DNA of 64,000 nucleotides, taken from Candidatus Woesearchaeota archaeon. GTDB lineage: Archaea > Nanobdellota > Nanobdellia > SCGC-AAA011-G17 > PNOQ01. Below the pieces are notes generated by a model. It did not search any database and was not told where the DNA came from. It worked only from the letters and a program-made list of their open reading frames with translations. A program made the translations under genes and the position numbers. The stretch is taken from the NCBI GenBank assembly GCA_018302135.1, contig JAGWAE010000002.1, positions 11,803 through 75,802 on the forward strand, read 5' to 3'. The stretch's first letter is position 1. Every line of letters starts with the position of its first letter. Shown here piece after piece: positions 6,363 through 62,430 of the stretch.

Positions 6363-6435
6363 AGCCTACGGAGGGATTTGAACCCACGACCTCCGCTTTA
6401 CTAAAGCGATGCTCTACCGGCTGAGCTACGTAGGC
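6363..6435 (-). tRNA. tRNA-Thr (encoded anticodon AGU)
   Basis: Reverse complement GCCTACGTAGCTCAGCCGGTAGAGCATCGCTTTAGTAAAGCGGAGGTCGTGGGTTCAAATCCCTCCGTAGGCT. Acceptor G1-C72, C2-G71, U73 is Thr-like. Anticodon loop TTAGTAA gives A34-G35-U36. One U-U mismatch in the T-stem. Confidence 0.65.
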
Positions 6436-23938: not shown

Positions 23939-25186
23939 ATGGACCTTGGTGATTATATAGAAGTCAGAACTGATTCTGAAGTTTTTAAAGGAACTTTAAT
24001 GCCAGATTCTTTGAGTAATAAATTGATTTTAAAGTTAGATTCTGGTTATAATATTGGAATTGATAAGAAAAAAATAAAAGAAAAAAAAGTTATAAAAGAA
24101 ATGGTACAAAAAGAAAGAAGACCAAACAAAATTAAGTTTTCTAAAGAGTTACCAACTATATTAATATTGCATACTGGCGGGACAATTGCTTCTAAAGTAA
24201 GTTATAAAACTGGTGGTGTAATAGCTAAGTTTAGTCCAGAAGAAATTTTAGAGCTTTTTCCAGAGATAAGTAATATTGCTAATATCAAAACCAAACTAAT
24301 TTCTAATATATTTTCTGAAGATATGGGATTTAAAGATTATAATAAGTTAGTTTTGCAAATTAAAAGGGAGTGTAAAAATGTTGAAGGTATTATAATAACT
24401 CATGGAACAGATACTATGCATTATACTTCTGCTGCTTTGAGCTTTATGTTGGAAAATTTAGGATTTCCTGTGATTTTAGTTGGATCTCAAAGAAGTTCGG
24501 ATAGAGGAAGTTCGGATGCAGCCTTAAATTTAGTTTGCGCAGCACAATTTATTGTAAAATCTAATTATGCTGGTGTTGCTATTTGCATGCATTCTAGTAT
24601 GAATGATGATAATTGTTATATTTTACCCGGGTTAAAGGTTAAAAAGTTGCATAGTTCAAGAAGAGATGCTTTTCAAACTGTGAATAGTAAGCCAATTGCT
24701 ACAGTTAATTTTAATGGTGAGATAAAATATATCAGTCATGATTTTATGAGAAAAGATAAAAGTAAAGAATTAGTAGTTAACTTGCTTAGCAAAAATCTTA
24801 AAATTGGTATTTTGAAAGTTCACCCAAATATGCATTATTCTGAAATTTCTAAATACAAGACTTTTGATGGATTGATAATAGAAGGAACTGGGCTAGGACA
24901 TGTTCCGATAAATGAAAATGTTAAAGTTTACAATGCTTTGAAAAGTTTAAATATTCCAATTGTAATGACTAGTCAAACTGTTTTTGGAAGAGTTAACTTA
25001 AATGTTTATTCAACTGGCAGAAAATTGCAAGAATTTGTTCTTTCTGGGTCTGATATGACTTCAGAAACTGCTTTTGTCAAACTTGCTTGGTTACTTAGCA
25101 ATAAGAAAGACGTTAAATTAATCTCTAGTAATTTGAAAGGTGAGATTAATGAAAGAATTTCTGATGAATTTTTGAAGGAATATTAG
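23939..25186 (+). CDS. gatD: Glutamyl-tRNA(Gln) amidotransferase subunit D (GatD), asparaginase-like
   Basis: N-terminal GatD domain plus L-asparaginase motifs ILHTGGTIAS and IIITHGTDTM. Confidence 0.85.
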   Translation: MDLGDYIEVRTDSEVFKGTLMPDSLSNKLILKLDSGYNIGIDKKKIKEKKVIKEMVQKERRPNKIKFSKELPTILILHTGGTIASKVSYKTGGVIAKFSPEEILELFPEISNIANIKTKLISNIFSEDMGFKDYNKLVLQIKRECKNVEGIIITHGTDTMHYTSAALSFMLENLGFPVILVGSQRSSDRGSSDAALNLVCAAQFIVKSNYAGVAICMHSSMNDDNCYILPGLKVKKLHSSRRDAFQTVNSKPIATVNFNGEIKYISHDFMRKDKSKELVVNLLSKNLKIGILKVHPNMHYSEISKYKTFDGLIIEGTGLGHVPINENVKVYNALKSLNIPIVMTSQTVFGRVNLNVYSTGRKLQEFVLSGSDMTSETAFVKLAWLLSNKKDVKLISSNLKGEINERISDEFLKEY

Positions 25187-30561: not shown

Positions 30562-31965
30562 TTGAGTATGGATTATGAAAAAATTCAGTTTAAGGCTGGT
30601 TTGGAAATACATCAACAGTTAGAAACACATAAATTATTTTGCAATTGTCCTTCTGAATTAAAAGATGAACCCCATGAGATATTAATCAAAAGAAGATTAA
30701 GAGCAGTTCCTGGTGAAGAAGGTGAAGTTGATGTTGCGGCGGAATATGAAAGCCTAAAAAATAAAGAATTTATTTATGAAGGATATAAAGATAGTTCGTG
30801 TCTTGTTGAATTTGATGAAGAACCTCCACATAATATAAATCAAGATGCTTTAGATATTGTTTTGCAGATTTGTAAAATGTTAAATTGTAAAATTGTTGAT
30901 GAAATACAAGTAATGAGAAAAATTGTTGTTGATGGATCAAATACTTCAGGTTTTCAGAGAACCATGTTAGTGGGTTATGATGGAAAATTAGAAACTAGTA
31001 AAGGAATTGTAAAAGTTGATAGTGTTTGTTTAGAGGAAGATTCTGCAAGAAAAATTGCAAAAAATGATAATTCTATTATTTATAGATTAGATAGATTAGG
31101 AATCCCATTAATAGAAATTGGAACTAAACCAGATATAAAAAATCCAGAGCATTGCAAAGAAACAGCTGAATTAATTGGAATGATATTGAGAAGCACGGGA
31201 AAAGTTAAAAGAGGATTAGGTACAATAAGGCAAGATGTTAATGTTTCTATTAAAAATGGAGCAAGAGTTGAAATAAAAGGTTTTCAAGATTTGAGAAATA
31301 TGCCTAAAATTATTGAGTATGAAATTGAAAGACAATTAAAGGAAATTGTGAAGCAAGAAGTTAGAAAGGCTAATAGTGATGGAACTACTTCTTTTTTAAG
31401 ACCTATACCTGGTGCAGGAAGAATGTATCCAGAAACAGATGTAAAACCAATAATTATTGATAATAAACGATTAGATAAAATTAAATTACCGGAATTAATA
31501 GATGAAAAAATATTAAGATATGAAAAACAAGGATTGAGCTCTGAGTTAGCTAGAAGTTTCGTTAAATCTGGGTTTGAATTAGAAGATTATGATTATAAAT
31601 TAGATAAAACTTTGATAGCTAGTGTTTTAGTTGAAGTTCCTAAAGATTTGAAAGCTAGATATAATATTGAATATGAATTCAAAGAGAAAGATTATAGATT
31701 TGTTTTAGATGCTTTAGAGAAAGATAAAATAAGTAAAAGCGCAGTTACTGAGATTATGTTAGAAATTGCCCAAGACAAAAAAATCGAGTTGAATAAATTT
31801 GAAAAAGTTAATGAAAACAAGCTAGAGGAAGAAATCAAAAAAATTGTTCATGAGAATAAAAATTTGAGTGATGGTGCATTAATGGGGATTATAATGAAAA
31901 GGTTTAAGAATACAGCAGACGGTAAATTAATAGCATCAATTTTGGCGAAATATAAAAATGGATAA
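30562..31965 (+). CDS. gatE: GatE/GatB-family amidotransferase subunit (probable partner of GatD, unusually short at 467 aa)
   Basis: N-terminus MSMDYEKIQFKAGLEIHQQLETHKLFCNCPSEL matches the GatE/GatB catalytic domain. C-terminal GatB/YqeY-like helical region. GatD is in the same window. Confidence 0.75.
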   Translation: MSMDYEKIQFKAGLEIHQQLETHKLFCNCPSELKDEPHEILIKRRLRAVPGEEGEVDVAAEYESLKNKEFIYEGYKDSSCLVEFDEEPPHNINQDALDIVLQICKMLNCKIVDEIQVMRKIVVDGSNTSGFQRTMLVGYDGKLETSKGIVKVDSVCLEEDSARKIAKNDNSIIYRLDRLGIPLIEIGTKPDIKNPEHCKETAELIGMILRSTGKVKRGLGTIRQDVNVSIKNGARVEIKGFQDLRNMPKIIEYEIERQLKEIVKQEVRKANSDGTTSFLRPIPGAGRMYPETDVKPIIIDNKRLDKIKLPELIDEKILRYEKQGLSSELARSFVKSGFELEDYDYKLDKTLIASVLVEVPKDLKARYNIEYEFKEKDYRFVLDALEKDKISKSAVTEIMLEIAQDKKIELNKFEKVNENKLEEEIKKIVHENKNLSDGALMGIIMKRFKNTADGKLIASILAKYKNG

Positions 31966-35378: not shown

Positions 35379-36137
35379 TCAAGATGTTTTTAATGGATAA
35401 TCTTCAATATCTTCTGAAATAGTTTTTTCTTGAATAGACCTACATTCATTTTTGGCAAAATCTATTAATTCATCATTTACTTCTAGATAATGTGGTTTAT
35501 GTTTTAAGAAGTCTATACCTACTATATTTGGTTTCTTTCCATGCTGTTCTTCGTATAATAATGCGTAGATGGCTAATTGTAATTTATACTCTTGCGTTAT
35601 TAGCTCTTTTGCAGAGGTTTTATAATCCATTAAGCTTACTTTGCCATCAATATTATGAACTGCATCAACAAATCCTTGTACTTGAAATTCTGGCGAAACA
35701 AAATGAACTTCAGTCATTGGTTTCAAAATAGAAAAGGCAGATTCAATTGACATTTCTTTTATCTTTGGGTTTAATTTTCTCAAAAAGTTACCATACCAAT
35801 TATTTAACATTTGAATAGATTCTTCATAATAAAAATCTAATTGTTCGGGAGTTAATTTTATTTTTCTTAACTCTTCAGAGAAATCCTGCCACTTCTGATT
35901 GAATAGACTGTTTAGAACTACTTTTAATTCAAACTCGTAATATTCTTCACTTATTTTTAATATGTCTATCTTAAAGAAATCTTCTAAAGCTAGATGAACT
36001 ATTTTACCTCTGGTTAAATGAATTGAAGGAACTTTTTTTTGTAATCCTAATATGTATTGATAATAATATTTTCTTGGACATTGTTTGAATGTATTAATAG
36101 AGCTAGGACTCTGTACACGTTGCACCATTATCGACAT
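35379..36137 (-). CDS. PD-(D/E)XK nuclease superfamily protein (RecB/Cas4-like, without C-terminal Fe-S cysteines)
   Basis: N-terminal FKQCPRKYYYQYILG, motif II D (VDAVH), motif III MDYKT (D/ExK), QxxxY (QLAIYALL). Only one C-terminal Cys, so no Cas4-type Fe-S cluster. Confidence 0.6.
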   Translation of the reverse strand: MSIMVQRVQSPSSINTFKQCPRKYYYQYILGLQKKVPSIHLTRGKIVHLALEDFFKIDILKISEEYYEFELKVVLNSLFNQKWQDFSEELRKIKLTPEQLDFYYEESIQMLNNWYGNFLRKLNPKIKEMSIESAFSILKPMTEVHFVSPEFQVQGFVDAVHNIDGKVSLMDYKTSAKELITQEYKLQLAIYALLYEEQHGKKPNIVGIDFLKHKPHYLEVNDELIDFAKNECRSIQEKTISEDIEDYPLKTS

Positions 36138-45972: not shown

Positions 45973-46227
45973 ATGGCCTCACCTTTACCAAAATGGATTA
46001 TGCAAAGATATTCTATCCTTTGGAATACTTTTCATGATAAAGAGTTTGATCATGATGCTGCTTTTAACTTATTGAATAATGAGAAAACGGTTAGTATTGC
46101 TATTTCTAAATTAAGAAAAAATGGTTGGTTGGAAATTAAACTAGATGAAAATGATGCTAGAAGAAGATTGTATAAATTAAAAAGTCCAGAACAAGCTGTA
46201 AAAGAAATAGGTGAGAAAAATGAATAA
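45973..46227 (+). CDS. Small hypothetical protein (84 aa), overlaps start of the giant surface protein gene
   Basis: Possible winged-helix-like segment (TVSIAISKLRKNGWLEI). 17-nt overlap with the downstream gene. Confidence 0.4.
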   Translation: MASPLPKWIMQRYSILWNTFHDKEFDHDAAFNLLNNEKTVSIAISKLRKNGWLEIKLDENDARRRLYKLKSPEQAVKEIGEKNE

Positions 46228-49200
46228 TAAATATTTTATTCTTTTAATGATTTGTATAACTTTAGTTGTTGAATTCGCTTCTGCAGAAATAATCAGTAGT
46301 TGCCAAACTATATCTAGCCCAGGATCTTATGAATTAAACCAGAGTATAACTAGTACTACAACATGTATGACTATTGCAGTTAGTAATGTAGATTTTAATT
46401 GTAATGGTTCAACTATTTCTTATAATTCTGGGGGAGGAGCGACTAATTATGGAATTAATGCTATTTATCTGCTTGTCCCCTTAGAAAACATAACTATAAG
46501 AAATTGTGATATTAAAGATGTAAACGCCGCAGGAACCCCATCGGCAGGAATACAATTTACTAGAGTTACAGATTCAGTTATATTAAACAACACTATACAG
46601 ACTAATGGAACTACATTAAATCATGGAATTACGCTTACAACCGGATGTAAAAGAAATAGAATAGAAAATAATACTATAAATACTTGGGGGAGTGGAATAA
46701 CAAATGTAGGAATTTACCTTAATACAGAGGCATCAAATAATAATATAACTGGAAATATTGTAAGAGGTGTAGGTACATTAACTAGTTATGCTGTTTATTT
46801 TGCTGCCGACGCTAATAATAATAGTGTAAATAATAATAATCTTTCTACAATTTCAACGGTTGTTGCAGCTAATGCTGACCCACATGTTGTTGTTATCAGT
46901 GCGAGTAATTTGAATAATATCACTAATAACAATATATATGGTGAAGGCGCGCAGAGAGGATATGCTGTGTATATTACCACAAATGCAGAATCAAATAATA
47001 TTCAAAACAATGATATTATTATTAATCTTACTACTGGTGCAATAAGTTATGGAATTTATATTTTAAGATCACCTTCAACTAATGTGATAAATAATACTAT
47101 AACCCCTATTGGGACAGGTACTTTAAGAGGAGTTTATGTTGCTAATGCACAATATACTAACATACAAAATAATAATATATCTATCCTTAGCCCCGCTATA
47201 ACAACTGCAGATGGGATTCTTGTTACTGCCTCACCAAATAGTTCAGTTTTAAACAATGATATTTTAATTAATGCAACTTCTACTGTCAATGCCATATCTT
47301 CCACTTCCTCTGCTAATAATCGTATCGAAAATAATAATATAAATATTTTAGGGAATGGTACTGCAACGACATTTAATGGTGTTTTGACTACTACTTCGTA
47401 TTCTAACTCTATAATAAATAATAGTATATATATCAAAGGAATAACTGTATTAAACGGAGTGTTACTCACTACTTCTCCAGATAATATTGTTGAAAACAAT
47501 TCTATAAACGTTACTGGAACTGGAGCTACAAATGTTGGAATTTATTTATCTTCTGCTGCACCTTCAAATATTGTAAGAAATAATACGATATATTCCTCAG
47601 CATCAATTCCTGCATATGGAATATATTTACTTTATGATGGAGTAAATAATCTTATAGAAAAAAATACTATAACTACTTATGGAACAACTAATGCTAATTT
47701 TGGTATTTATTTAAGCACCGGAACCAATGAGAATAGGATAATAAACAATACAGTTACTACACTGGGCGCAGGTACTACAAATTATGGAATTCATTTGCTT
47801 ACATGTAATAATAATTATGTTGGTTATAATAATATTTCTACAAACGGTACTACTGCAAACCACGGGATATACATTCTTACACAAGCAAATAATAATACTG
47901 CAGAAAATAATATAATTTCTACGTATGGAACAACAGGTAGTTATGGAATTTATATCAACAGTGCGAATTATAATAAATTAATTGGAAATAATATCACTGC
48001 TAATGGATCAACACAAGTTGCTGGAACTACAACAAGTAATTATGGTATTGTGGTAGGTGCAAGTTCTTACTTTTCTGAAGTTTATAATAATACAATTTAC
48101 AATGGGGGCGGGAGATATAATTATGGAATTTATAGTCTTACTAATTCTAGATGGGGAACATTTACAGGAAATAATGTGAATACTGGTGGAACTGGTAACC
48201 TTAATGTGGGAGCGTATATTTCAGAAAGCCATTACAATACTTTAGAAAATAATGTATTTTCTACATCTGGATCTACTACAAACCATGCAGTATATTTACA
48301 TTCTAGTGCCAGGGAAAATGTTATAGAAAATAATAATATATCTACCTCAGGTGGAACTGACTCCCATGCATTCGCATTTTTATATGTTGCTGCAGGAGGA
48401 TATCCGGAGAGGAATATTATCAAAAATAATGAACTTTTAAGTATTTCTGGTAGAGATATTGACTTTGCAACTGCATCTATAAATGGAACCACACTTATTG
48501 ATCAAGTTATTGGAAATTATTCTTTTACTGGTACAGCAGGCACATTAATAATAAGAAATGAATCTGCAGGCCAAATAGAATTTGGAGCAGTTTTGTCTGG
48601 GGCGAGTACATTTTTTAGTAATAGAATATTCATATGGCCTAATTTAGCCGGAATAGAAGAAAGTACTTCTGCTTTGAATAAATCGGCTACAATAACATTT
48701 TATAATGTTTCAACAAGTTCGACAGAACTACAAATATATAGAAATGGGGGGATTTGCCCAGAAACAATATGTACTAATCTAACAACTATGCAGGCTGGAA
48801 ATGTAACATTCAATGTTACACGGGGAGGGAATTATTCCATACTTGCAACATCATCATCACCATCAGTTGAATTAAATTATCCAGATAATAGTTTTAATAG
48901 TTCTTCTCAGAATATAACTTTCAATTTTACTGCTATAGACGATTCTGTTGGAGACTTAAATTGTAGTGTTTATATTAATAATGTAATAAATCAAACAAAT
49001 TATTCTGTTTCTAATGGCACATTAACTAGCTTTATTATTAATGGTTTACAAGAAAATAATCATACTTGGTATATTGAATGTTATGATTATTTAGGGAATA
49101 GAAATGTATCAGAAACAAGAAATTTTTCTGTAATAATCTCTCAACCATCTTATAATTTCAATTATCCTGGAAATAATTCTTATATCAATGATGTTTCATC

Positions 49201-51667
49201 AGTTTTGTTGAATTATAGTGTTTTTGATAGTGATTTAAGAAATATTACCGTACATCTTTATGGAAATGACGTTTTGTTGAATACAAGTGAAAATATTGCC
49301 AACGGAACTGAATTGATTTATAATTGGACTGGATTATCTTTAGGTAAATATAATTGGTCTTTGGAAACTTCTAATGGATTAAAAAATTCGACAAGAGAAT
49401 ATAATTATTTTAATTTGACTAATCTGACAGTTAATTGTGAAGCTGGTGGGCCTTATCAAGGAAATGCTTTGGTTTTAGTTCATGGTAATGTTAGTGATGG
49501 CACAAATTATTTGAATTCTGGTAGTGTTAATGTTAGTATTTTAGATGGTGAAACTCTAGTTTCAACAAAAAATATAACTTTGAGCTCAAATGGAAATTTT
49601 GAAACTAGTTTTGCCGATTTAACTTCTGGATTGTATACTTTAAATGTCACCGGGAATTATTTTGGGGTTAGTAAATCTTGTGTAGATGATGTAATTTTGG
49701 GAAATTCTGCAAGTTTAGTTTTGAATAAAATTATATCATTATATAATTTAACAAATGAAACATTGGATTATAACATAACTCTTAAAGTTATTAATAAGGG
49801 AGGAAGCAATGCAACAAGTACAACATTGATTGATGATGATTCTGATTCAAGCCCGTATAATATTGGAAATATTTCTGGAAATGAAACAATTAGTTTTAGT
49901 TATATAAAAACATTTGCGAGAAATAGTAGTATTTACAATGTAACCTTTGCAATAGCCAATGTTAGTGGAACTGATTCATATGGTGGCGGAGAAGTATCTG
50001 CAAGTTCATCACAAATTCTGCTCACTGTTCCAGATACAACCCCCGAACAGCAAATAAACTTGATTAAAAATGCATATTATTTATCAGAAAATTCTACTAG
50101 TGTTACTTACAATTTAAGTATTGAGGTTGTAAACTCCGGAGGAATTGATTTGAATTCAATAACATTAATAGATTCTGATTTGAGTATTAATACTGTTATA
50201 AACTTAAATAGGACAGAGAATTATTTAGATTCTGGGATAATTGTTATTGATAAGGCTGCATCAAATACTAATAAATTATTTGTAAGCGCTACTGCTACTG
50301 TGAATGTTTTAACATATTCTTCAAATCAAATATTAGTAAGAATACCCGGTTATGGTGGGCCAGCGGATGCTATTGTTTATACGCCTAGTTCAGTATTAAC
50401 TTCTACTTCATTCGATACTAATATAACTGTAGAAAATCAAAATTCAGATATAGGCCAAGATTTTGTTGTAGATTATTGGATAACTAGTGATAATGAAACA
50501 ACAAATTATAGTTCTGGCCAACAAACCATATATGTTGGAGCTTCAAGTACTTCAAATATAACAGCTATATTAACTTCACCATCTAGTCCTGGAAATTATA
50601 GATTTAGATCTTTAGTGACATGGGTTGGCGGAACTGCAACTTCTTACGATAGCTTTGAGGTTACAGCACCTAGTGTAGTTTCTGAAACCCCTTCTCAAAA
50701 TGGGGGAGGATCTAGTGGCGGTGGAACGCGGGTAAGACCTATTGAAGAAATAACTGGAGATGTTATTTTTGATCAGAATAAATTGATACAGGTCATAGAA
50801 TATCCAGATAATATTATAATATCTTCTGAAGAAAATTTAACTAAAGAATTTATTGTAAAAAACACTGGAAACAAAACACTACATAATATGAAAATAACCA
50901 TATCTGGATTGCCTTTGGGATTTTATTCAATAACTCCTAACTCAGTGGATATTGGTGTGATGAATACTCAAAGTTACAAAATAGTTTTTACCCCTACGGG
51001 AGATTCTAATAAATATTTATTTAAATTTATAATTAGTTCTGATGAGTCTTATAACGAAGAAAATTCAATTTTACAAGTTATAAACAAAGACAAAGAATCA
51101 ACAAATTTCTTCAATAAAATAAATCCAAAAGTTTATACTCTTTTTACGGTAATGTTTGTGTTTGGAATTTTGGTTATTCTATTGATAAGAACAAGCAATA
51201 AGACCATAAAAAAAGTATTTCTAATAAGTTTTCCAATTATTCTCATAGGAATCAATGAATATTTTTATTCAGATGGGATAATTAGTGGTTTGATATCAAA
51301 GGATTTATTTAATTATAATAATTTGATTATGATACCTTATTTGGTATCTCTTATTATATTATTCTTTGTTTTTTGGATAATCCTTCGGAAGTATAAGATA
51401 AAACCTTACGTGAGAAAACAGAAATATGCCAAGAATACGGTAAAAGGTTTGCTGAAGAAAGAAGTATATACCTCTTCTGGCCACCATATGGGTAAGATTA
51501 TGGAAATTATTGTTTGTAAAAATAAAATTGATAGTTTGGTGATAAAATCAAGAAAAAAAACTAAAGCTAAGGGGATATTAGTGAAGTATAAAGAAGTAAA
51601 AAGTATTGGTCAAATAGTGATTATAAAATGTGATTCTGTAGAAAAATTTAGAAATTTGCAAATCTAA
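46211..51667 (+). CDS. Giant (1818 aa) secreted Asn/Thr-rich parallel beta-helix repeat surface protein with C-terminal TM segments and PRC-barrel-like domain
   Basis: Signal peptide. Dozens of about 22-aa beta-helix repeats (NNxIxxxGxxxYGIYL...). Ig-like/CARDB-like middle region. Three C-terminal TM helices followed by VYTSSGHHMGKIMEIIV...KGILVKYKEV (PRC-barrel-like). Confidence 0.8.
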   Translation: MRKMNNKYFILLMICITLVVEFASAEIISSCQTISSPGSYELNQSITSTTTCMTIAVSNVDFNCNGSTISYNSGGGATNYGINAIYLLVPLENITIRNCDIKDVNAAGTPSAGIQFTRVTDSVILNNTIQTNGTTLNHGITLTTGCKRNRIENNTINTWGSGITNVGIYLNTEASNNNITGNIVRGVGTLTSYAVYFAADANNNSVNNNNLSTISTVVAANADPHVVVISASNLNNITNNNIYGEGAQRGYAVYITTNAESNNIQNNDIIINLTTGAISYGIYILRSPSTNVINNTITPIGTGTLRGVYVANAQYTNIQNNNISILSPAITTADGILVTASPNSSVLNNDILINATSTVNAISSTSSANNRIENNNINILGNGTATTFNGVLTTTSYSNSIINNSIYIKGITVLNGVLLTTSPDNIVENNSINVTGTGATNVGIYLSSAAPSNIVRNNTIYSSASIPAYGIYLLYDGVNNLIEKNTITTYGTTNANFGIYLSTGTNENRIINNTVTTLGAGTTNYGIHLLTCNNNYVGYNNISTNGTTANHGIYILTQANNNTAENNIISTYGTTGSYGIYINSANYNKLIGNNITANGSTQVAGTTTSNYGIVVGASSYFSEVYNNTIYNGGGRYNYGIYSLTNSRWGTFTGNNVNTGGTGNLNVGAYISESHYNTLENNVFSTSGSTTNHAVYLHSSARENVIENNNISTSGGTDSHAFAFLYVAAGGYPERNIIKNNELLSISGRDIDFATASINGTTLIDQVIGNYSFTGTAGTLIIRNESAGQIEFGAVLSGASTFFSNRIFIWPNLAGIEESTSALNKSATITFYNVSTSSTELQIYRNGGICPETICTNLTTMQAGNVTFNVTRGGNYSILATSSSPSVELNYPDNSFNSSSQNITFNFTAIDDSVGDLNCSVYINNVINQTNYSVSNGTLTSFIINGLQENNHTWYIECYDYLGNRNVSETRNFSVIISQPSYNFNYPGNNSYINDVSSVLLNYSVFDSDLRNITVHLYGNDVLLNTSENIANGTELIYNWTGLSLGKYNWSLETSNGLKNSTREYNYFNLTNLTVNCEAGGPYQGNALVLVHGNVSDGTNYLNSGSVNVSILDGETLVSTKNITLSSNGNFETSFADLTSGLYTLNVTGNYFGVSKSCVDDVILGNSASLVLNKIISLYNLTNETLDYNITLKVINKGGSNATSTTLIDDDSDSSPYNIGNISGNETISFSYIKTFARNSSIYNVTFAIANVSGTDSYGGGEVSASSSQILLTVPDTTPEQQINLIKNAYYLSENSTSVTYNLSIEVVNSGGIDLNSITLIDSDLSINTVINLNRTENYLDSGIIVIDKAASNTNKLFVSATATVNVLTYSSNQILVRIPGYGGPADAIVYTPSSVLTSTSFDTNITVENQNSDIGQDFVVDYWITSDNETTNYSSGQQTIYVGASSTSNITAILTSPSSPGNYRFRSLVTWVGGTATSYDSFEVTAPSVVSETPSQNGGGSSGGGTRVRPIEEITGDVIFDQNKLIQVIEYPDNIIISSEENLTKEFIVKNTGNKTLHNMKITISGLPLGFYSITPNSVDIGVMNTQSYKIVFTPTGDSNKYLFKFIISSDESYNEENSILQVINKDKESTNFFNKINPKVYTLFTVMFVFGILVILLIRTSNKTIKKVFLISFPIILIGINEYFYSDGIISGLISKDLFNYNNLIMIPYLVSLIILFFVFWIILRKYKIKPYVRKQKYAKNTVKGLLKKEVYTSSGHHMGKIMEIIVCKNKIDSLVIKSRKKTKAKGILVKYKEVKSIGQIVIIKCDSVEKFRNLQI

Positions 51668-51714
51668 TGTTTTGGAACATAATATTTTATAAATAGACTT
51701 ATTTTTTCTTTTGT

Positions 51715-53538
51715 ATGTTAGATTTATTTCCTTTTGACAAACATAGAGATGCACAAGAATCTTTTATGAAAGTTGTAGGCACTGCATTAAAACATAAAAA
51801 AGATGTTTTGGCCCATGTTCCAACTGGAGTTGGAAAAACTGTTGCAACATTAGCTCCGAGTTTAGCTTTTGCTTTGGAAAATAAAAAACATGTTATATTT
51901 TTAACTTCTAAACATACACATCATAAAATTGCTGTTGAAACTTTAAAAATAATAAAAGATAAAAAAAATATTAATTTTCAAGTTGCGGATTTTATTGGTA
52001 AAAGATGGATGTGCCCAAGAGAAGATGTTGGAGCTTTAAATTCTAAGGAGTTTGGAGAATTTTGTAGATATGTTGTAGAAAATAAAGAATGCCCCTATTA
52101 TGAGAATTATTATAGTAGAAGTAGAATTTTTACTAATAAATTATTACTTGATGAACTAAATAATAACATCTTTCATGTTGAAGAATTAATTGATAAATGT
52201 AGAAATGCACATGCTTGTAGTTTTGAAGCGGCTGCTGATTTGGCTAAAAAATCTAAAGTTGTAATATTAGATTATTATCATGTTTTGAATCCAATAACAA
52301 GAGCTAATTTTTTTAAGAAGATTGAAAAGGATGTAGAAGATTGTATTTTTATCTGGGATGAGGCACATAATCTGGCTGGAAGAGCAAGAGAATTGTTAAG
52401 TGAATATATTAATACTTTAAGTTTGGATTCTGCGATAAAAGAAGCTGAAAGGTTTAATCAAGATTTGGCTAGTGTTATAGTTGGGTTAAAAGAAAGTTTG
52501 TTGGGTATGAGTGAAAAATTAAGTTTAGATAAAAATGAGGTTTTAGTTAATAAAACTGATTTGATTAATTTGAAAGATGAAATTATAACTGAAATGTTTG
52601 AAACTGCTGAAAAAGTTATTGAAGAAGAAAAAAGAAGTTATTTAAACTCTTTAGCGGGATTTTTGATGCTTTGGAAACAAGAAGACAAAAGATTTACGAG
52701 AATTTTAAAAAGAAGTTTTAACAGAATGGGCAAACCTATTATAAGTTTGTATTACAACTGCTTAGATCCAAGTATTGTACTGGCTCCGATAATCGAGCAA
52801 GCACATTGTAACATTTTTATGAGCGGGACTTTACATCCTTTAGATATGTATGAAGAAATATTTGGTTTAAAAACTCCAATAAAAGTTGAATATGAAAATC
52901 CATTTCCTTCTTCTAATAGATTAGACTTGATTGTGCCTAACATTAGTACTAAATATACTTCAAGAAATTTGGAAATGTATGAAAGAATTGCTGATAATAT
53001 TAATGAATTAATTAAAGTGATAAAAGGAAACAAAATATTCTTTTTTCCAAGTTATGAATTGATGGATAAAGTTAAAGATAAAATATTTGGTGAAAATCTT
53101 TTTATAGAGAACCAAGGAACTGATAAAGGTTCTAGAGAAGCATTACTTAGAAAATTTGTTGAGTTAAAAGATAAAAGTTGTAGTTTATTGGCTGTTAGTT
53201 CTGGCAGTTTTGGTGAAAGTGTAGATTTAATTGGTGATCATTTAGTTGGAGTTGTTATAGTTGGCATTCCTTTTGGCAAAGTAGATTTAGAAAGCAATGA
53301 ATTGATTAGGTATTATGAAGAAAAATTTAAGAAAGGAATGGAATATGGTTATATAATTCCGGCATTTACTAGTATTATGCAGAATTCAGGCAGGTGTATT
53401 AGAAGTGAGAACGATAAAGGAGTTATCGTTTATTTAGATGAAAGATATTTATCTCCAAATTATAAAAAATATTTTCCATCCACTGTTAAGTTTAAAGTAG
53501 CTAGAGATTATAAAGAAGTTGAGAAGTTTTTTAAATAA
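51715..53538 (+). CDS. XPD/Rad3-like superfamily 2 DNA helicase with Fe-S domain
   Basis: Walker A VPTGVGKT, DEAH box IWDEAHNL, four Cys (WMCPRED...FCRYVVENKECPYY) as in the XPD Fe-S domain, C-terminal Helicase_C_2-like region. Confidence 0.75.
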   Translation: MLDLFPFDKHRDAQESFMKVVGTALKHKKDVLAHVPTGVGKTVATLAPSLAFALENKKHVIFLTSKHTHHKIAVETLKIIKDKKNINFQVADFIGKRWMCPREDVGALNSKEFGEFCRYVVENKECPYYENYYSRSRIFTNKLLLDELNNNIFHVEELIDKCRNAHACSFEAAADLAKKSKVVILDYYHVLNPITRANFFKKIEKDVEDCIFIWDEAHNLAGRARELLSEYINTLSLDSAIKEAERFNQDLASVIVGLKESLLGMSEKLSLDKNEVLVNKTDLINLKDEIITEMFETAEKVIEEEKRSYLNSLAGFLMLWKQEDKRFTRILKRSFNRMGKPIISLYYNCLDPSIVLAPIIEQAHCNIFMSGTLHPLDMYEEIFGLKTPIKVEYENPFPSSNRLDLIVPNISTKYTSRNLEMYERIADNINELIKVIKGNKIFFFPSYELMDKVKDKIFGENLFIENQGTDKGSREALLRKFVELKDKSCSLLAVSSGSFGESVDLIGDHLVGVVIVGIPFGKVDLESNELIRYYEEKFKKGMEYGYIIPAFTSIMQNSGRCIRSENDKGVIVYLDERYLSPNYKKYFPSTVKFKVARDYKEVEKFFK

Positions 53539-53570
53539 AATTTATATACTAGTGAAATAATTTTTTATTT

Positions 53571-54203
53571 ATGGATATACAAACTGCCGCTTTGAGGTTT
53601 GGAATTACTTTTCTTTTAGCATTTATATTTGGTATAGAAAGACAAAGAGAGCATAAACCAGTAGGTTTTGGAACTTTTAGTTTTGTTTCTGTTGGTTCAT
53701 GTGGTCTAGCTTTGGTTGCTACAGATCTTTACTCAAATAATCCTTTGCCTTTGCTTGCAGCAATTGTTACAGGTATTGGTTTTCTTGGAGCAGGTGCATT
53801 AATCAAAACAACTGATAAAATATTTGGATTTACTACTGCAGCAAGCATTTGGTTATTTGCCATAATAGGCTTAATTGTTGGAGTTGGAGAGTATAATATT
53901 GCATTGATGATATATATTTTAGTCTGGATAGTTATAATTGTTGATAAAATTCTACAAATAAAAGGTATTGGATCTTATCAAAAAAAATTGATTATAACTA
54001 CTAAAAATATGATAACTGAACAGGAAGTTGACAAATTGTTTGATGAATTTAAAACGAAACATAAATTAATTGGTGTTGAAATGGATAAAACTAATAATAA
54101 AAGCAATCTTATTTATTTAATAGAAGGCACAAGAGATAATATAAATAAACTAGCCAAAAAATTATATGAACAAAAATGGTTAGCTAGTGTTAAGTCTGAA
54201 TAA
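53571..54203 (+). CDS. MgtC/SapB-family membrane protein
   Basis: FGIERQREHKPVGFGTFSFVSVGSCGLAL is the MgtC signature. Confidence 0.7.
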   Translation: MDIQTAALRFGITFLLAFIFGIERQREHKPVGFGTFSFVSVGSCGLALVATDLYSNNPLPLLAAIVTGIGFLGAGALIKTTDKIFGFTTAASIWLFAIIGLIVGVGEYNIALMIYILVWIVIIVDKILQIKGIGSYQKKLIITTKNMITEQEVDKLFDEFKTKHKLIGVEMDKTNNKSNLIYLIEGTRDNINKLAKKLYEQKWLASVKSE

Positions 54204-54243
54204 AAGAAAAAGTTTAAATAACTCCTAGATTTGATTATTTATT

Positions 54244-55469
54244 ATGTACACTAGTGAGATAAAAAATTCTTTAGAAGGCAAAAAGATAACATTGCGTGGC
54301 TGGGCACATGAATTGAGAGATTTGGCTAAAATTAAATTTGTTTTACTTAGAGACGAAGAAGGAATTATACAATGTGCTATTAAGACTGGAAAAGCTTTTG
54401 ATAATTTTGGTGAATTAAGCCAAGAGAGCGTAATAGAAATTACTGGAAATGTTAAAAAAGCCCAAGTAAAAAGCCCAGAAGTTAGTGTTAAAGATTTTGA
54501 AATTGAAGTTGTAGAATTGAATTTATTAAATAAAGCTGAAGTACTGCCTATTCAAGTTGTTGAGAAAGATATTGATACTGGATTAGCTAAAAGATTGGAT
54601 TATAGGTCATTGGATATTAGAAAGCCACGAGTGTCTACAATTTTTAAGATACAATCAACAATTGCTAACTCATTCAGAGAATTTTTTTATAAAAAAGGAT
54701 TTATTGAAATAAGGCGAAATATTTTGACAGAGATGCTTATTTGGCACAATCACCCCAATTGTATAAACAATTGTGCGCAATTAGTTGGGGTAAAGTATTT
54801 TCCACTTCTCCTGTGTGGAGAGCAGAAAAACATAATACACCAAGGCATTTGAATGAAGTAAGACAAATGGATATTGAAGTTGCTTTTGCTGATCAATTTG
54901 CCGTGATGAAATATCAAGAGGAAGTTATGAAACATATTATCGAAAATGTTATTGAAAAATGCAAAGAAGAAATTAAATTATTAAATTTAGATTTAAAGAT
55001 ACCTAAAGCAAAGTATATCAGTTATGATGAAACTATTGAATTATTAAATAAAAATGGAGTTAAAATTAAATATGGTGAGGATCTGGAACCGGAATGTGAA
55101 AAAAAGTTGTGTGAATTATTCAAACATAGTTTAGTTTTTGTACATTCCTGGCCAACATCAATAAAACCATTTTATATATGGCCAATTGATAAAAAAGTTA
55201 GTGGTGGTTTTGATATGTTGTATGGTGGAATGGAATTAAGCTCTGGTGGACAAAGAGTTCATGTTCCTGAAATATTAATTGAAAACTTGAAGAAAAAAAG
55301 TTTAAATCCAAAAGATTTTAAATGGTATGTTGATGCATTTAGATTTGGTGCACCCATGCATGCAGGTTGGTCAATAGGGTTAGAAAGAATAACTATGGTT
55401 GTTTGTAATCTAGATAATATAAGAGAAGCTTGTTTGTTTCCAAGAGACAGAGATAGGTTATCACCATGA
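54244..55469 (+). pseudogene. aspS: Aspartyl-tRNA synthetase (archaeal/eukaryal type) disrupted by an internal deletion/frameshift near 54705-54720
   Basis: N-terminal OB domain and ...FYKKGFIEI in frame 1, then stop. Downstream frame carries KYFDRDAYLAQSPQLYKQ...FRAEKHNTPRHLNE...FPRDRDRLSP. The segment expected between GFIEI and KYF (about 19 aa containing the motif-1 TPKI and tEGGAelF) is absent, and the frames differ. Confidence 0.7.
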
Positions 55470-56746
55470 ATTTCATACAAATACAGGAAGCATTAGAAAA
55501 AAAGAAAGGCAATGTAGCAGTAAGAGGATGGATTTATAGAATTAGAAAATTAAAAGATAAAATATTTATTGTTTTGAGAGATTCTTCTGAAATTATTCAA
55601 TGTGTAATTAAAAATGAAGAAATGATTAAGGTTGCAGATAAGCTATTAATGGAAAGTTCTTTAGAAATTGAAGGTGAAATTTATTCTGAACCAAGAGCAC
55701 CAACTAAATATGAAATTGATGTTAAAAAATTAATAGTTGTTCACGCTTCTGAAGATTTCCCAATAAATAAGGACCAAAGCCCAGAATTTTTGGCAGATAA
55801 TAGACATTTATGGTTAAGAAGTAGAAAAATGACTTCTATTCTGAAAATTAGAAGTACTGTTTTAGAAGCAATGAGAGAACATTGGAGAAAAAAAGGATTT
55901 TATGAATATCACAGCCCAATGTTTATGGGGATGCAAGCTGAAGGAGGTTCTACTTTGTTTAAAGTAGATTATTATGGTAAACCTGTATATTTATCCCAAA
56001 CTTGGCAATTACATGCTGAACCAGCTATATTTGCTTTAGAAAAAATATTTACAATACAACCTGCATTTAGAGCTGAAAAGTCAAAAACATCTAGACATCT
56101 ATCTGAGTTATGGATGGCAGAAATGGAAGCTGCATGGGAGGGTTTTGAATATTTACAAGATGATGCCGAAGAAATGATTAAACATGTTGTTAAAAAAGTA
56201 TTAGCTGATAACAAAGATGAATTAAAAATTCTTGAAAGAGATATTTCTAAGTTAGAACCTGTGTTGAAAAAGAAATTCCCAAGAATGACTTATGATGATT
56301 CTTTAAAAATATTAGCTAAACATGATATGAAATTAGAATGGGGCAAGGATTTGAGAACTTTTGAAGAAGATAAATTAAGTGAGTTATACGATACACCGAT
56401 TATCATAACTAAATATCCAAAGGTAGTAAAAGCATTTTATATGAGAGAAGATCCTAAAAATTCAAAAGTAGTTTTGGGTTTTGATGTTATTGCCCCTGAA
56501 CATTATGGTGAAATTGTTGGGGCTTCTGAAAGAGAAACGGATATTAAAAAATTAAAAAAGAATTTAGAGGAACAGGGAGAAGACCCAAAAAAATATGAGT
56601 TTTACTTTGATACAAGAAGATACGGTAGTGTTCCGCATGGTGGTTATGGCGCGGGTGTTGAAAGAATTATTTCTTGGATTTGTGGCCTAGATAATATTAA
56701 GGATGCTATTGCTTTTCCAAGAACTATGACTAGATGGACACCATAA
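55466..56746 (+). CDS. asnS: Asparaginyl-tRNA synthetase (class IIb)
   Basis: Anticodon-binding OB, motif 2 FRAEKSKTSRHLSE, C-terminal GYGAGVERIISWICGLDNIKDAIAFPRTMTRWTP. ATGA overlap with aspS. Confidence 0.8.
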   Translation: MNFIQIQEALEKKKGNVAVRGWIYRIRKLKDKIFIVLRDSSEIIQCVIKNEEMIKVADKLLMESSLEIEGEIYSEPRAPTKYEIDVKKLIVVHASEDFPINKDQSPEFLADNRHLWLRSRKMTSILKIRSTVLEAMREHWRKKGFYEYHSPMFMGMQAEGGSTLFKVDYYGKPVYLSQTWQLHAEPAIFALEKIFTIQPAFRAEKSKTSRHLSELWMAEMEAAWEGFEYLQDDAEEMIKHVVKKVLADNKDELKILERDISKLEPVLKKKFPRMTYDDSLKILAKHDMKLEWGKDLRTFEEDKLSELYDTPIIITKYPKVVKAFYMREDPKNSKVVLGFDVIAPEHYGEIVGASERETDIKKLKKNLEEQGEDPKKYEFYFDTRRYGSVPHGGYGAGVERIISWICGLDNIKDAIAFPRTMTRWTP

Positions 56747-56792
56747 GTTTATTTTAATAAACTTTATAAATTATTCAGCTTTCCCAATTTAA

Positions 56793-57941
56793 ATGGAAAA
56801 TTATTTTATAACTTCTGAATCTGTTACTGAAGGACATCCAGATAAAATTTGTGACCAAATATCTGATGAAATTTTAGATATATTAATTAGTCAAGATCCT
56901 ACTTCTAAAGTTGCTGTTGAAACTTTAGTAACTACAGGTAGTGTTCATGTAGCTGGAGAAATTACAACAGAAGGATATGTAGATGTTCAAGAAACAGTTA
57001 GAAGAGTTTTAAAAGAAATTGGTTATATTAATCCAAGATTTGGTATTGATTGTCAAGATGCAGGTGTTTGGGTTGCTATTCATAAACAAAGTCCTGAAAT
57101 TGCTATGGGTGTAAATAGTGAGGAACAAGGCGCTGGGGATCAGGGGATGATGTACGGTTTTGCTTGCGATGAAACAAAAGAATTAATGCCTATGCCAATA
57201 ATATTTGCGCATAAATTAACTAGAAAATTGGCTGAAGTAAGAAAGAAAAAAATAATAAATTATCTAGGACCAGATGGAAAATCCCAAGTTACAGTTCAGT
57301 ATGTAAAAGGTAGACCAAAAAGAATTGAATGTATTGTTATAGCGCAACAGCACACAGAAGAAATTTCTGAAAAAGAATTGAGAAAAGAAATTTTTAAAAA
57401 AGTGATAAAACCTATATGTGGAAAATTAATAGATAAAAATACTAAAATTCACATTAATGCTACTGGAAGATTTGTCATTGGTGGACCAGAAGGAGATACT
57501 GGGGTGACTGGAAGAAAAATTATTGTAGATAGTTATGGTGGAATTGGAAGACATGGTGGCGGTGCTTTTTCTGGAAAGGATCCTAGCAAAGTAGATAGAA
57601 GTGGCGCTTATATGGCAAGATATATTGCTAAAAATATTGTTGCTGCGGGTTTAGCAAATAAGTGTGAAGTACAAATAAGTTATGTTATTGGTGTTGCCAG
57701 ACCAAGTTCAGTAAATGTTGAATGTTTCGGAACTAATAAAATTCCTGAAGAAAAAATAATGAAGTTAATATATGAAAACTTTGATATGACTCCGAAAGGG
57801 ATTATAGATAAATTAGACTTATTAAAACCTAAATACAGACAGACTGCTGCTTATGGTCATTTTGGAAGGAATGAACCTGGATTTACATGGGAAAGAACTG
57901 ACCGAGCATTGTTATTAAGAGAAGAAGCTGGATTAGAATAA
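56793..57941 (+). CDS. metK: S-adenosylmethionine synthetase, bacterial/eukaryal MetK type
   Basis: [21 protein letters not shown] (MetK N-terminal signature), [10 protein letters not shown]-loop, 382 aa. Not the archaeal MAT type. Confidence 0.9.
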
Positions 57942-59023
57942 ATGGTATACTTGATAAATTAATCCTAGTATAAACATTAACATCAAAAATATTCCTATTA
58001 TATATTTTTTACCTAAATGATATTCTGGAGTTCTGTAATGTTTTTTTCTCGCTCTGTGAAACATTAAAACTATTAAGATTCCATCTATGCCACCAGCAAT
58101 AGCTCCAGTTATTCCAATAACTTTTATAAAACTTGTAAAACCTGTTAAAAATATTACAAATGGAATAACAACAGTTAAACACCAAGCCCAAAAATTTTTA
58201 ATTTTATAATCATAGAAGTGAACATTGCAAGTGCTGCAAACAAATTGCCAATAATCAAAATGAATTTGCCAAAAGATTCTCCTAATCCAATTGTTGCTAT
58301 TTCTGTTGTTTTTGCTCCAGTGATTCCGAGAACTGCAAAAGTAAATAATAAATAAGCAAATAAAGGAATTAAAGAACCAATAATTATTGTTTTTTTTAAC
58401 TTTTTTTTATCGTGAGATAGATATTCTTTCATTTCTGGAATTGCTGCAGTTCCTATGAACGCGAATAAGACAACACCATAAGGCAAAAATATATTTTTTA
58501 GATTTATTGTAGCTAAATTAGCTAAATTAAACTTTCCTGAAAAAATTGAATATAAAAATAATCCACTAAAAATTAAAAAAACAGTTGTTATAAAAAATAC
58601 TTCTGATTTTGCTATCGTTTTTAAACCAATGTAAATTATTGAAGAAGCAACAACAAAAAACGCTATTGAGAATGTGATACTAGATAACCCAAAAACTGTA
58701 GCTAAAGCTTGACCAGAACCTATAATGTAAGCTATTAATGCACCATATATTCCAAATACCATAGAAAACATCATTAGCTTTTTTCCCGTTTTACCAAGAT
58801 AACGTTCAGCATAACCAGGTAATTGATGATTTCCCGGAGTTCTTAGTACAATCTCTCCTAGAAATAAATTTAACATCATCATTGCTAAACCAATTATAAT
58901 TATTATAAAAAATCCAGGAATAAATCCAACTTGAGAGATTACATAAGGAATTCCTAAAACTCCTGCACCTATAATTGTGCCGCATAATAGAGCAGTTGCT
59001 CTAAAAGTAGATAATGAATTCAT
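57934..59023 (-). pseudogene. Amino-acid transporter (APC/aromatic amino acid permease-like), frameshifted near 58185-58200
   Basis: ORF 58175-59023 (282 aa, 8 TM) ends in an A/T homopolymer. A downstream frame continues with TM segments (FWAWCLTVVIPFVIFLTGF...HRARKKHYRTPEYH...) to a stop at 57934. Intact length would be about 365 aa. Confidence 0.6.
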
Positions 59024-59025
59024 AA

Positions 59026-61650
59026 CTAAATTTTGGATTCTTGTTTTATATAGTTTTTTGTTTCATCTATTACAAATATTTTTCTTAATTCTAAAATTAC
59101 TATTCCTACAAGTACTACACCTAATGAGATTAACCAATCATTTAAAGATAATTGAACTAACTCAAAAAATTCACTTATTGGTGTATATATTAAAATTATT
59201 TGTAATCCTAAAGCCAATAATATTGAAATTAATAAAAATTTGTTATTAAACAAACTCATTTTGAATATACTTTTTTTATTAGATCTACAAACAAGTACCA
59301 AAAATAATTCAAATAAAATTACTGTTGTCAAAACCATTGTTCTTGCTTTGTCTATATTTCCAGAAACATTATAAGAATATGAAAAAATAGAAATACCTAT
59401 TACTGTTAATAACACTGCAGATAAAATTAGAAATGGTGTTGAACCATTTAATATAGACTCCTTTGGATTTCTTGGTTTTCTATGCATAATATTTTTTTCT
59501 GCAGGATCTACTCCTAATGCTATTGCAGGCAAACTATCTGTGATTAAATTAATCCAAAGAATTTGTAAAGGTAATAATGGTAAAGGTAAAGATAAAATTA
59601 AAGACATTGTAATTATACCTATTTCTCCAAGATTTGCAGATAATACTAATTTAACAAACTTTTTTGTGTTATCATAAATTCTTCTTCCGTGACTTACTGC
59701 ATTAACAATTGAGTTAAAATTATCATCTAATAATATTACATCTGATGAATCTCTTGTAACATCTGTGCCAGAAATACCCATTGCTATACTTACATTTGCT
59801 TTTTTTAATGCTGGTGCATCATTAATACCATCTCCAGTCATTGCTACAATCTCTCCTTTTTCTTGTAAGTTTTCTAAAATTAGTACTTTGTGTTCTGGGT
59901 TTACTCTTGCGTAAATGTCTACTTGGTTAATAATAGAAGATATTTGATCTTTGTTCATATTTGAAAGTTGTTCGCCAGTAATAACTCTTGTACCTAAGTT
60001 TAATTCTTTTGCAATTGCTTGTGCGGTTAATGCATTATCTCCAGTTATCATTATTACTCTGATTCCTGCCTTTTTGCAAAGCTTGATTGCTTCTTTTGCT
60101 TCTTCTCTTGGAGAGTCTATCATACCTACTAATCCTAAAAATATCATTTCTTTTGAATTGTTTTCTTTTGAAAATGCTAATCCTAAAACTCTTAATGCTG
60201 AATTAGCCATTTTTGAATTCATTAATAATATTCTTTCTTTGTCTTTTGGATCAATAAATTTTATTCTGCCATTATCATAATAATATTTACATTTGGCTAA
60301 TACAATTTCTGGGGCACCTTTCATATGAATACACTTTTTATCTTGATATGAATCTAAAGTTGCCATAAATTTTTTAATTGAGTCAAATGGAGTTTCATCT
60401 ACTCTTGTAAAATTTGTTTTGATATTTGCTTTTTTTGCAGCAACTAATAATGCTAATTCTGTTGGATCTCCAATTTTGTTTTCTAGTTGAGAATTATTAC
60501 AAAGAATTCCAGTTTCTAATAATTTTTCAATTCTTTTTGTATCATATTTTGTTGAAAATGAAGTTTTAAAATTTCCTTTTGTATCGTAACCATTCCCAGT
60601 TACTTGTATTAATTCGTTATTTGCATATATTTGAGTTACTGTCATTTCTCCTTTTGTCATTGTTCCTGTTTTATCTGCACAAATAACAGTTACAGCACCA
60701 AGAGTTTCTATTGATGAGAGTTTTCTTACTAACGCTTTATTTTGTGCCATTCTTTGCACACCTAAAGCTAAAGAAACAGTTAGAACTATTGGCAATCCTT
60801 CTGGTATTGCTGCAACTGCTATACTTATCGCAGTCATTATTGATTCTGATAATGGAATTTTTCTAATAAAACCTAATCCTAATAATAATATAACTACAAA
60901 GAGAATAATTTTAGTTAAACTTTTACTTACTTTTTTTAATTTTTTTTCTAATAACGTTTCTTCTTTTTTTATAGTTTGTAATGAACTGGCAATTTTACCA
61001 AATTCAGTTTTATCTCCTGTAGAAATTACAACTGCTTTTGCTCTACCAGAGGCAACAATTGTTCCTGCAAAAACCATATTGGTTTGTAGCGCTAATGTTT
61101 GAGTTTGTTGTATCTGTTTTGTTATTTTTTCTACTGGCAAAGATTCTCCGGTTAAAATTGATTCATTTGTTTTAAAATCAAAAACTTGAATTAAACGAGC
61201 ATCCGCAGGTATTTTGTCTCCTTCTTCTAATATTAATATATCTCCCGGAACAACTTCTTCTGAATTTATTATGATTAAACGTTTGTTTCTTATAACTTTG
61301 GCTGAAGAGGCACTAATCTTCTTTAATAATTCTAAAGCACGCTCCGCTTTGTATTCTTGATAATATCCAAGCACACTATTAATTATTAATATTACTAAAA
61401 TTACCGAAGCGTCTAAAAATTCTTTTATTATTAATGAGATTATTATTGCTAAAAATAAAATATAAATTAATGGACTTTTAAATTGCCTAATAAAAATTGA
61501 TAGTTTAGAAATACCTTTTTGTTTCTCTATTTTGTTTAAACCTACTTTTTTTAATCTGTATTCTGCTTCATGTTGGGATAATCCATTATTAAAATCAGAG
61601 TTTAATGATGTTAAAACTTGTTCTTTTGATTTGGAATGATATGGAATCAT
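59026..61650 (-). CDS. P-type cation-transporting ATPase (type II, Ca2+/Mg2+-like)
   Basis: Phosphorylation site CADKTGTMT, TGES (LTGESLPV), MITGDN, VAMTGDGINDAPALKKA. 874 aa. Confidence 0.9.
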   Translation of the reverse strand: MIPYHSKSKEQVLTSLNSDFNNGLSQHEAEYRLKKVGLNKIEKQKGISKLSIFIRQFKSPLIYILFLAIIISLIIKEFLDASVILVILIINSVLGYYQEYKAERALELLKKISASSAKVIRNKRLIIINSEEVVPGDILILEEGDKIPADARLIQVFDFKTNESILTGESLPVEKITKQIQQTQTLALQTNMVFAGTIVASGRAKAVVISTGDKTEFGKIASSLQTIKKEETLLEKKLKKVSKSLTKIILFVVILLLGLGFIRKIPLSESIMTAISIAVAAIPEGLPIVLTVSLALGVQRMAQNKALVRKLSSIETLGAVTVICADKTGTMTKGEMTVTQIYANNELIQVTGNGYDTKGNFKTSFSTKYDTKRIEKLLETGILCNNSQLENKIGDPTELALLVAAKKANIKTNFTRVDETPFDSIKKFMATLDSYQDKKCIHMKGAPEIVLAKCKYYYDNGRIKFIDPKDKERILLMNSKMANSALRVLGLAFSKENNSKEMIFLGLVGMIDSPREEAKEAIKLCKKAGIRVIMITGDNALTAQAIAKELNLGTRVITGEQLSNMNKDQISSIINQVDIYARVNPEHKVLILENLQEKGEIVAMTGDGINDAPALKKANVSIAMGISGTDVTRDSSDVILLDDNFNSIVNAVSHGRRIYDNTKKFVKLVLSANLGEIGIITMSLILSLPLPLLPLQILWINLITDSLPAIALGVDPAEKNIMHRKPRNPKESILNGSTPFLILSAVLLTVIGISIFSYSYNVSGNIDKARTMVLTTVILFELFLVLVCRSNKKSIFKMSLFNNKFLLISILLALGLQIILIYTPISEFFELVQLSLNDWLISLGVVLVGIVILELRKIFVIDETKNYIKQESKI

Positions 61651-62347: not shown

Positions 62348-62357
62348 TTTTTTATAT

Positions 62358-62430
62358 GGCCTTACGGGGATTTGAACCCCGATCGCCCGGTCCGTAGCCG
62401 AGAGCTCTATCCAAGTTAAGCTATAAGGCC
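62358..62430 (-). tRNA. tRNA-Arg (encoded anticodon ACG)
   Basis: Reverse complement GGCCTTATAGCTTAACTTGGATAGAGCTCTCGGCTACGGACCGGGCGATCGGGGTTCAAATCCCCGTAAGGCCA. Anticodon stem CTCGG/CCGGG, loop CTACGGA. 5' half nearly identical to tRNA-Arg(UCG). Confidence 0.75.

Follow-up and report, generated by a model that had tools for sequence, protein, structure and literature searches.

The interrupted aspS gene and its neighbours

The whole stretch of DNA analysed here, 64,000 nt in length and hereafter called the window, carries on its forward strand an interrupted aspS gene for an archaeal-type aspartyl-tRNA synthetase (AspRS) at position 54244–55469. Its 5' part (54244–54591) encodes the OB anticodon-binding domain and the start of the catalytic core, its 3' part (54711–55469) the region from KAKYF to the C-terminal FPRDRDRLSP, including motifs 2 and 3, in a frame that is offset by +2. 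Both parts belong to the genome's own population, which we call organism A. Between them follow, on the same strand, a stretch of 20 nt (54592–54611), a patch of 87 nt (54612–54698), a stretch of 12 nt (54699–54710) and a junction between 54710 and 54711, at which 52 nt are gone.

In frame 1, the homology to AspRS runs up to SFREFFYKKGFIEI, and the residues FFYKKGFIEI end at 54711 in the ORF translation. Past the break the frame does not terminate after GFIEI, as an earlier sequence-only reading of this DNA had stated, but stays open for 47 further out-of-frame codons up to a TGA at 54850–54852. The homology restarts in the +2 frame at 54711/54717 (KAKYFDRDAY), and this frame reads KAKYFDRDAYLAQSPQLYKQ and onwards via FPRDRDRLSP to the stop codon at 55467–55469. 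Another TGA (54705–54707) adjoins the break, belongs to the downstream frame and stands directly before the restart of homology; after it, the frame continues with NKAKYFDRDAYLAQSPQLYKQ on to FPRDRDRLSP. When both parts are spliced, the translation of the window can be aligned end to end with the AspRS of P. kodakarensis (3nel and 1b8a, E about 1e-89), spanning residues 6–438 of 3nel_A, and the single large gap lies precisely at the transition from GFIEI to KYF. Class II aminoacyl-tRNA synthetases (aaRS) are characterised by motif 1, which contains an invariant proline, and by the TEGG loop behind it. Both elements are absent from the aspS of the window and are part of the missing 52 nt. Thus, the identification as an archaeal-type aspS, the interruption, the continuation in a different frame and the loss of the motif-1 region, all of which had been read from the sequence before, are correct.

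The same holds for the ATGA-coupled tandem with asnS (ORFs 54741–55469 and 55466–56746). The asnS gene (55466–56746, forward strand) overlaps the aspS stop codon and is intact, with a score of 472.6 bits against NCBIfam NF003037 (cut-off 414). An identical 4-nt overlap exists in a different archaeon, organism B, which is considered in detail below (contig L022, 3001–4275 and 4272–5579). This arrangement is conserved between A and B; their AspRS proteins are 62% identical. The NCBIfam name for the AspRS of the window is 'aspartate--tRNA(Asn) ligase', with an intact AsnRS encoded alongside. A GatD-like protein with GatD_N and asparaginase domains is encoded at 23939–25186 (forward strand), and a protein of 465–467 aa with GatB_N and a weak GatB_Yqey match at 30562–31965 (forward strand); its size presumably resembles that of GatB more than that of GatE. 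Organism B, too, has a GatB_N protein close to its aspS–asnS pair.

Two tRNA genes on the reverse strand have an A at the wobble position 34: a tRNA-Thr(AGT) with the loop TTAGTAA (6363–6435; Rfam tRNA, 67.2 bits) and a tRNA-Arg(ACG) with the loop CTACGGA (62357–62430; Rfam tRNA, 58.7 bits). The region of the former is 99.9–100% identical in three independent contigs (L008, L010 and L011) and is therefore not an assembly quirk. There are also two very large ORFs on the forward strand. One of 1641 aa (23–4948) has a counterpart of 2068 aa with an SLT domain in population contigs, the other of 1818 aa (46211–51667) a counterpart of 1815 aa with Beta_helix and faint NosD matches. These are probably surface or cell-wall-active proteins as in episymbiotic archaea.

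The intact allele and the foreign patch

At least 14 contigs from assemblies of the Rifle aquifer (JGI 3300025073 and 3300002727; ENA ANAN16-1 scaffolds and MEGAHIT k141 contigs; Logan SRR3989309), which stem from other samples or are re-assemblies, encode an intact AspRS of 425 aa (P0001), the top match of the protein search. Against the AspRS family (NCBIfam NF003483 / TIGR00458) this protein reaches 495.7 bits with a cut-off of 353 and 461.6 bits with a cut-off of 368.4. With PF01336 and PF00152 on record, corresponding to the OB-fold and the class II core, and with an end-to-end alignment to 3nel, it is a full-length member of the archaeal/eukaryal type (class IIb; 1b8a, 3nel). The copy in this record, in contrast, is frameshifted and lacks 17 codons, among them the one for the motif-1 proline. 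Taken alone, its N-terminal fragment yields 132.5 bits and its C-terminal one 298.7 bits, neither of which reaches the family cut-off; the spliced translation yields 446.2 bits.

Seven of these contigs (L001–L007) were compared with the window over 48244–61429. They have the same gene order and are 99.4–100% identical per aligned block. Compared with all seven, the window is shorter by exactly 52 nt at 54710/54711 (CCAACCGCCAGGAATAATTGGAACTTCAACTGAGGGTGGAACTGAATTATTT in L001). These correspond to 17 codons (QPPGIIGTSTEGGTELF) plus 1 nt and include the motif-1 proline. The alignment of both fragments, as proposed previously, thus sizes the gap by near-identical DNA at 52 nt instead of 56–58 nt, and the lost segment is 17 codons and a single nucleotide rather than about 19 residues. 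Putting the 52 nt back restores a continuous ORF of 1278 nt and 425 codons, whose product P0001 aligns without gaps and differs from the window just in about 30 residues before the break. Residues 174–425 of P0001 are 100% identical to the window in a tblastn comparison. Intact sequence was regarded beforehand as a sign of an assembly error if present in the reads; at the level of contigs, it is present in at least 14 of them.

The missing segment, QPPxIIxxSTEGGTxLF, is kept with minor substitutions in 25/25 of the AspRS homologs listed, and the closest relatives (P0001, P0002 and P0003) all retain it in a continuous frame. Therefore, the idea that it might be naturally absent in close relatives is not tenable. 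One could still think of a short variant natural to this lineage, for which the segment is dispensable and the frame is restored by recoding, e.g. by programmed frameshifting. All that speaks for it is that the two fragments jointly span most of the AspRS profile. The retention of the segment in relatives and listed homologs, the motif-1 proline and TEGG loop within it, and the TGA at 54705–54707, which would interrupt the downstream frame just before homology resumes, make such a variant vanishingly improbable. A split or trans-complementing AspRS was rejected as well, given the conservation of the 17 residues lacking here and the unbroken gene of the relatives. The segment is ancestral, judged by its presence in 25/25 listed homologs, so that an insertion of 52 nt in the other contigs was likewise discarded.

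A second anomaly, the 87 nt directly upstream, had escaped the sequence-only reading. When the 5' part of aspS is compared with contigs L002–L007, all 24 mismatches and 4 gaps fall into 54612–54698. They recur in the BLAST alignment of each of these contigs, including L007, which starts at 54242. The four contigs that reach the aspS stop codon (L001, L002, L005 and L006) do not show a single substitution in aspS outside the patch, so that nothing points to relaxed constraint. The patch could be assigned to a source. It encodes the peptide RKPRVSTIFKIQSTIANSFREFFYKKGFIEI, which matches P0066, the AspRS of organism B, at 31/31 residues. Contigs of this organism (L022 and L023) come from groundwater metagenomes (ANAN16-1 scaffold, PRJNA268031, with ENA analyses numbered near those of A). 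Over the entire aspS gene, A and B share 65% nucleotide identity. A three-way nucleotide alignment, with P0001 and L001 as the reference for A and L022 and L023 for B, contains 156 discriminating sites in 54244–54591, of which 154 agree with A and none with B. In 54612–54698, all 30 discriminating sites agree with B and none with A, and in 54711–55469 all 249 agree with A and none with B. The aspS of the window is a chimera of two organisms.

The switch from A to B lies within the 20-nt stretch AGATTGGATTATAGGTCATT (54592–54611), which is common to both and has no discriminating site. The return to A follows the 12-nt stretch ATTTATTGAAAT (54699–54710), again common to both, which ends at the break and from which the sequence skips 52 nt of A. 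The left flank and the missing segment end on the same T but agree no further, leaving a microhomology of 1 nt. No direct repeats were found flanking the missing 52 nt in the contig and three-way alignments. A slipped-strand deletion between direct repeats was dismissed on the grounds of this 1-nt microhomology.

These details bear on the possibility, also raised before, that the organism carries a real pseudogene. Its history would then have to combine an interspecies gene-conversion tract of 87 nt with a loss of 52 nt, and Asp-tRNA would be provided through a second aspS or by a host. The lesion is present in the deposited record, after all, and DPANN archaea, which are predicted to be symbionts, possess reduced genomes (PMC8204110). 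The search for a second aspS covered the 64 kb of the window; there, none was found, and the sole other match was asnS with 32% identity. However, the same population has the intact gene on at least 14 contigs, and homologous exchange at 65% identity, anchored by stretches of 20 nt and 12 nt, is implausible. Moreover, the deletion is not flanked by repeats and lies precisely where the tract ends. Decay is not visible either: everywhere but in the patch the gene equals the intact allele (154/156 and 249/249 sites identical to A). A split of an essential synthetase into two apparent ORFs does resemble the aaRS pseudogenes and losses of reduced symbiont genomes. Yet genuine aaRS pseudogenes recur across the assemblies of a lineage and gather substitutions, whereas this lesion occurs in one record and the remainder of the gene is unchanged. 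Together with the observations on the scaffold and on the public record described below, this lets us regard a pseudogene as very unlikely. Most unlikely, too, is a related scenario, in which a rare subpopulation of episymbionts had its sole aspS inactivated by the conversion tract and the deletion and used imported Asp-tRNA or AspRS activity. Were it true, this activity would come from the host or from sister cells.

Further gaps in the scaffold and the public record

Together with L001–L007, further population contigs cover the window from 1 to 61429; these further contigs are 99.8–100% identical to it per aligned block. Besides aspS, there are only two large discrepancies in this region, and each damages a gene on the reverse strand. 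At 35382–35384, 87 nt are missing in frame from a gene for a PDDEXK/Cas4-like nuclease (35379–36137) in comparison to L013 and L016, both of which are 100% identical on either flank of the gap. The predicted protein shrinks by this loss from 281 aa to 252 aa. Within 1–2 nt of the left edge of the gap, L017 (MEGAHIT) and L018 (Logan), which are independent contigs, come to an end. Thus, position 35383 is an assembly breakpoint, a place where assembly graphs break, and the loss of 87 nt is probably an assembly defect of the same kind. The second discrepancy, at 58213–58214, consists of 40 missing nt compared with L001, L002 and L006 and causes a frameshift in a gene for an amino-acid permease (57933–59023), which has 376 aa in L001 and a longest ORF of 282 aa in the window. 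One additional mismatch lies close to this gap, near 58140. All remaining indels are small and were seen only with contigs of strain variants (one of 6 nt in L009, 8 gap positions in L014).

The window does not contain a single N, and each of the three junctions has the appearance of a join without a gap. From this one might suspect that the deletion arose while the window was prepared, e.g. by stripping of Ns, and is not part of the public record. This explanation is extremely unlikely, because the two aspS ORFs of the window are exactly the NCBI proteins MBS3172078.1 (202 aa) and MBS3172079.1 (242 aa). The former, J4438_00660, corresponds to the N-terminal ORF with the tail that runs out of frame across the junction; the latter is the C-terminal ORF, listed as 'hypothetical protein J4438_00665 [Candidatus Woesearchaeota archaeon]' on a contig of 83,046 bp. 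The NCBI proteins are the ORFs of a gapless junction; hence the record already had this sequence at the time of its annotation, and the defect is part of the public record and does not stem from the preparation of the window.

Each of the two proteins occurs on one NCBI contig only, and neither comes from any other assembly. There is, accordingly, no recurrence of the lesion in independent assemblies or samples that would point to a pseudogene, and the presence of two further gene-damaging gaps within 61 kb of the same scaffold, one of them at a known contig breakpoint, also argues against it. In an exact look-up in the assembly collection, no contig was found for the C-terminal fragment, which fits a fragment unique to the NCBI record. 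Exact scans of genome and metagenome contig collections returned no match for the 32-nt junction, and the population is absent from them. Nor did 47 nt of the intact allele match anything in these collections. As the junction and the intact allele are both missing there, these negative results are uninformative either way.

Origin of the interruption and its consequences

From the 87 foreign bases before the break and the intact aspS on no fewer than 14 contigs of this population, we conclude that the broken gene is very probably a local error of a metagenome-assembled scaffold and not a property of the organism. The assembler would have left the path of organism A inside the 20-nt stretch common with the aspS of organism B, another archaeon of the Rifle aquifer, and would have followed organism B for 87 nt, where the contig ended. 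This chimeric end would then have been joined straight to the next contig of organism A, which would begin 52 nt further on, and the join would carry no Ns. The outcome would be an apparent frameshifting internal deletion in aspS, and we would expect read support across 54709–54711 to be lacking. Such a mis-join accounts for a lesion found in a single record, for the exact copy of B, for the unchanged remainder of the gene, for a junction devoid of repeats and for the sibling defects in the scaffold. Among the options considered earlier, a collapsed assembly is therefore favoured, with the foreign patch matching B at 30/30 sites and the intact allele present in the population. Support is lacking for the pseudogene and for Asp-tRNA being formed otherwise, given the 14 or more contigs on which this population has aspS intact.

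By which algorithmic route the error arose can be narrowed down less well. Rifle DPANN genomes have been obtained from IDBA-UD scaffolds with k of 40–100 (Castelle et al. 2021, PMC8204110), a study which may not include the genome considered here. With this reservation, the shared 20-mer is shorter than k, so that a plain de Bruijn path fails to explain the switch. Candidates are an assembly step that is local or uses a low k, a read that is itself chimeric, and the loss of Ns from a scaffold gap, and we infer the route only in this general sense.

Errors of this type have been described before. In 'Accurate and Complete Genomes from Metagenomes', Chen et al. (bioRxiv 10.1101/808410) found local errors to be prominent in IDBA_UD output, counted 13 of them in one curated genome of 1.1 Mb and warned that they send wrong gene sequences into public databases. 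The case described here resembles these errors in several respects. The population does not support the consensus, a contig or scaffold join is the site of the defect, a protein gene is damaged, and one scaffold has several defects. The sequence at the defect comes from a different genome, as 30/30 discriminating sites agree with organism B, and the scaffold has more unsupported joins, one at 58214 and one at 35383, where other assemblies break (ends of L017 and L018). Two differences should be mentioned. Our evidence came from the comparison of independent assemblies instead of read mapping. Furthermore, chimeras of whole scaffolds are called rare in their study (bioRxiv 10.1101/808410), whereas here the chimeric part is a mere 87 nt and stems from a second organism's ortholog of aspS.

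For the users of such data the consequences are tangible. A public scaffold of a metagenome-assembled genome contains at least 3 gapless mis-joins within 61 kb, which hit aspS, an amino-acid permease gene and a gene for a PDDEXK/Cas4-like nuclease. Due to the mis-join, NCBI lists the two pieces of aspS, J4438_00660 and J4438_00665, as hypothetical proteins, and protein databases gain spurious entries of 202 aa and 242 aa. The value of the finding is one of data quality; a biological significance of the interruption itself is not given. Judged from its gene sequence, the organism has an ordinary, intact AspRS of the archaeal type, and nothing indicates that it lacks this enzyme. Inferences of a missing aaRS or of dependence on a host, if drawn for DPANN archaea from records such as this one, would be misled.
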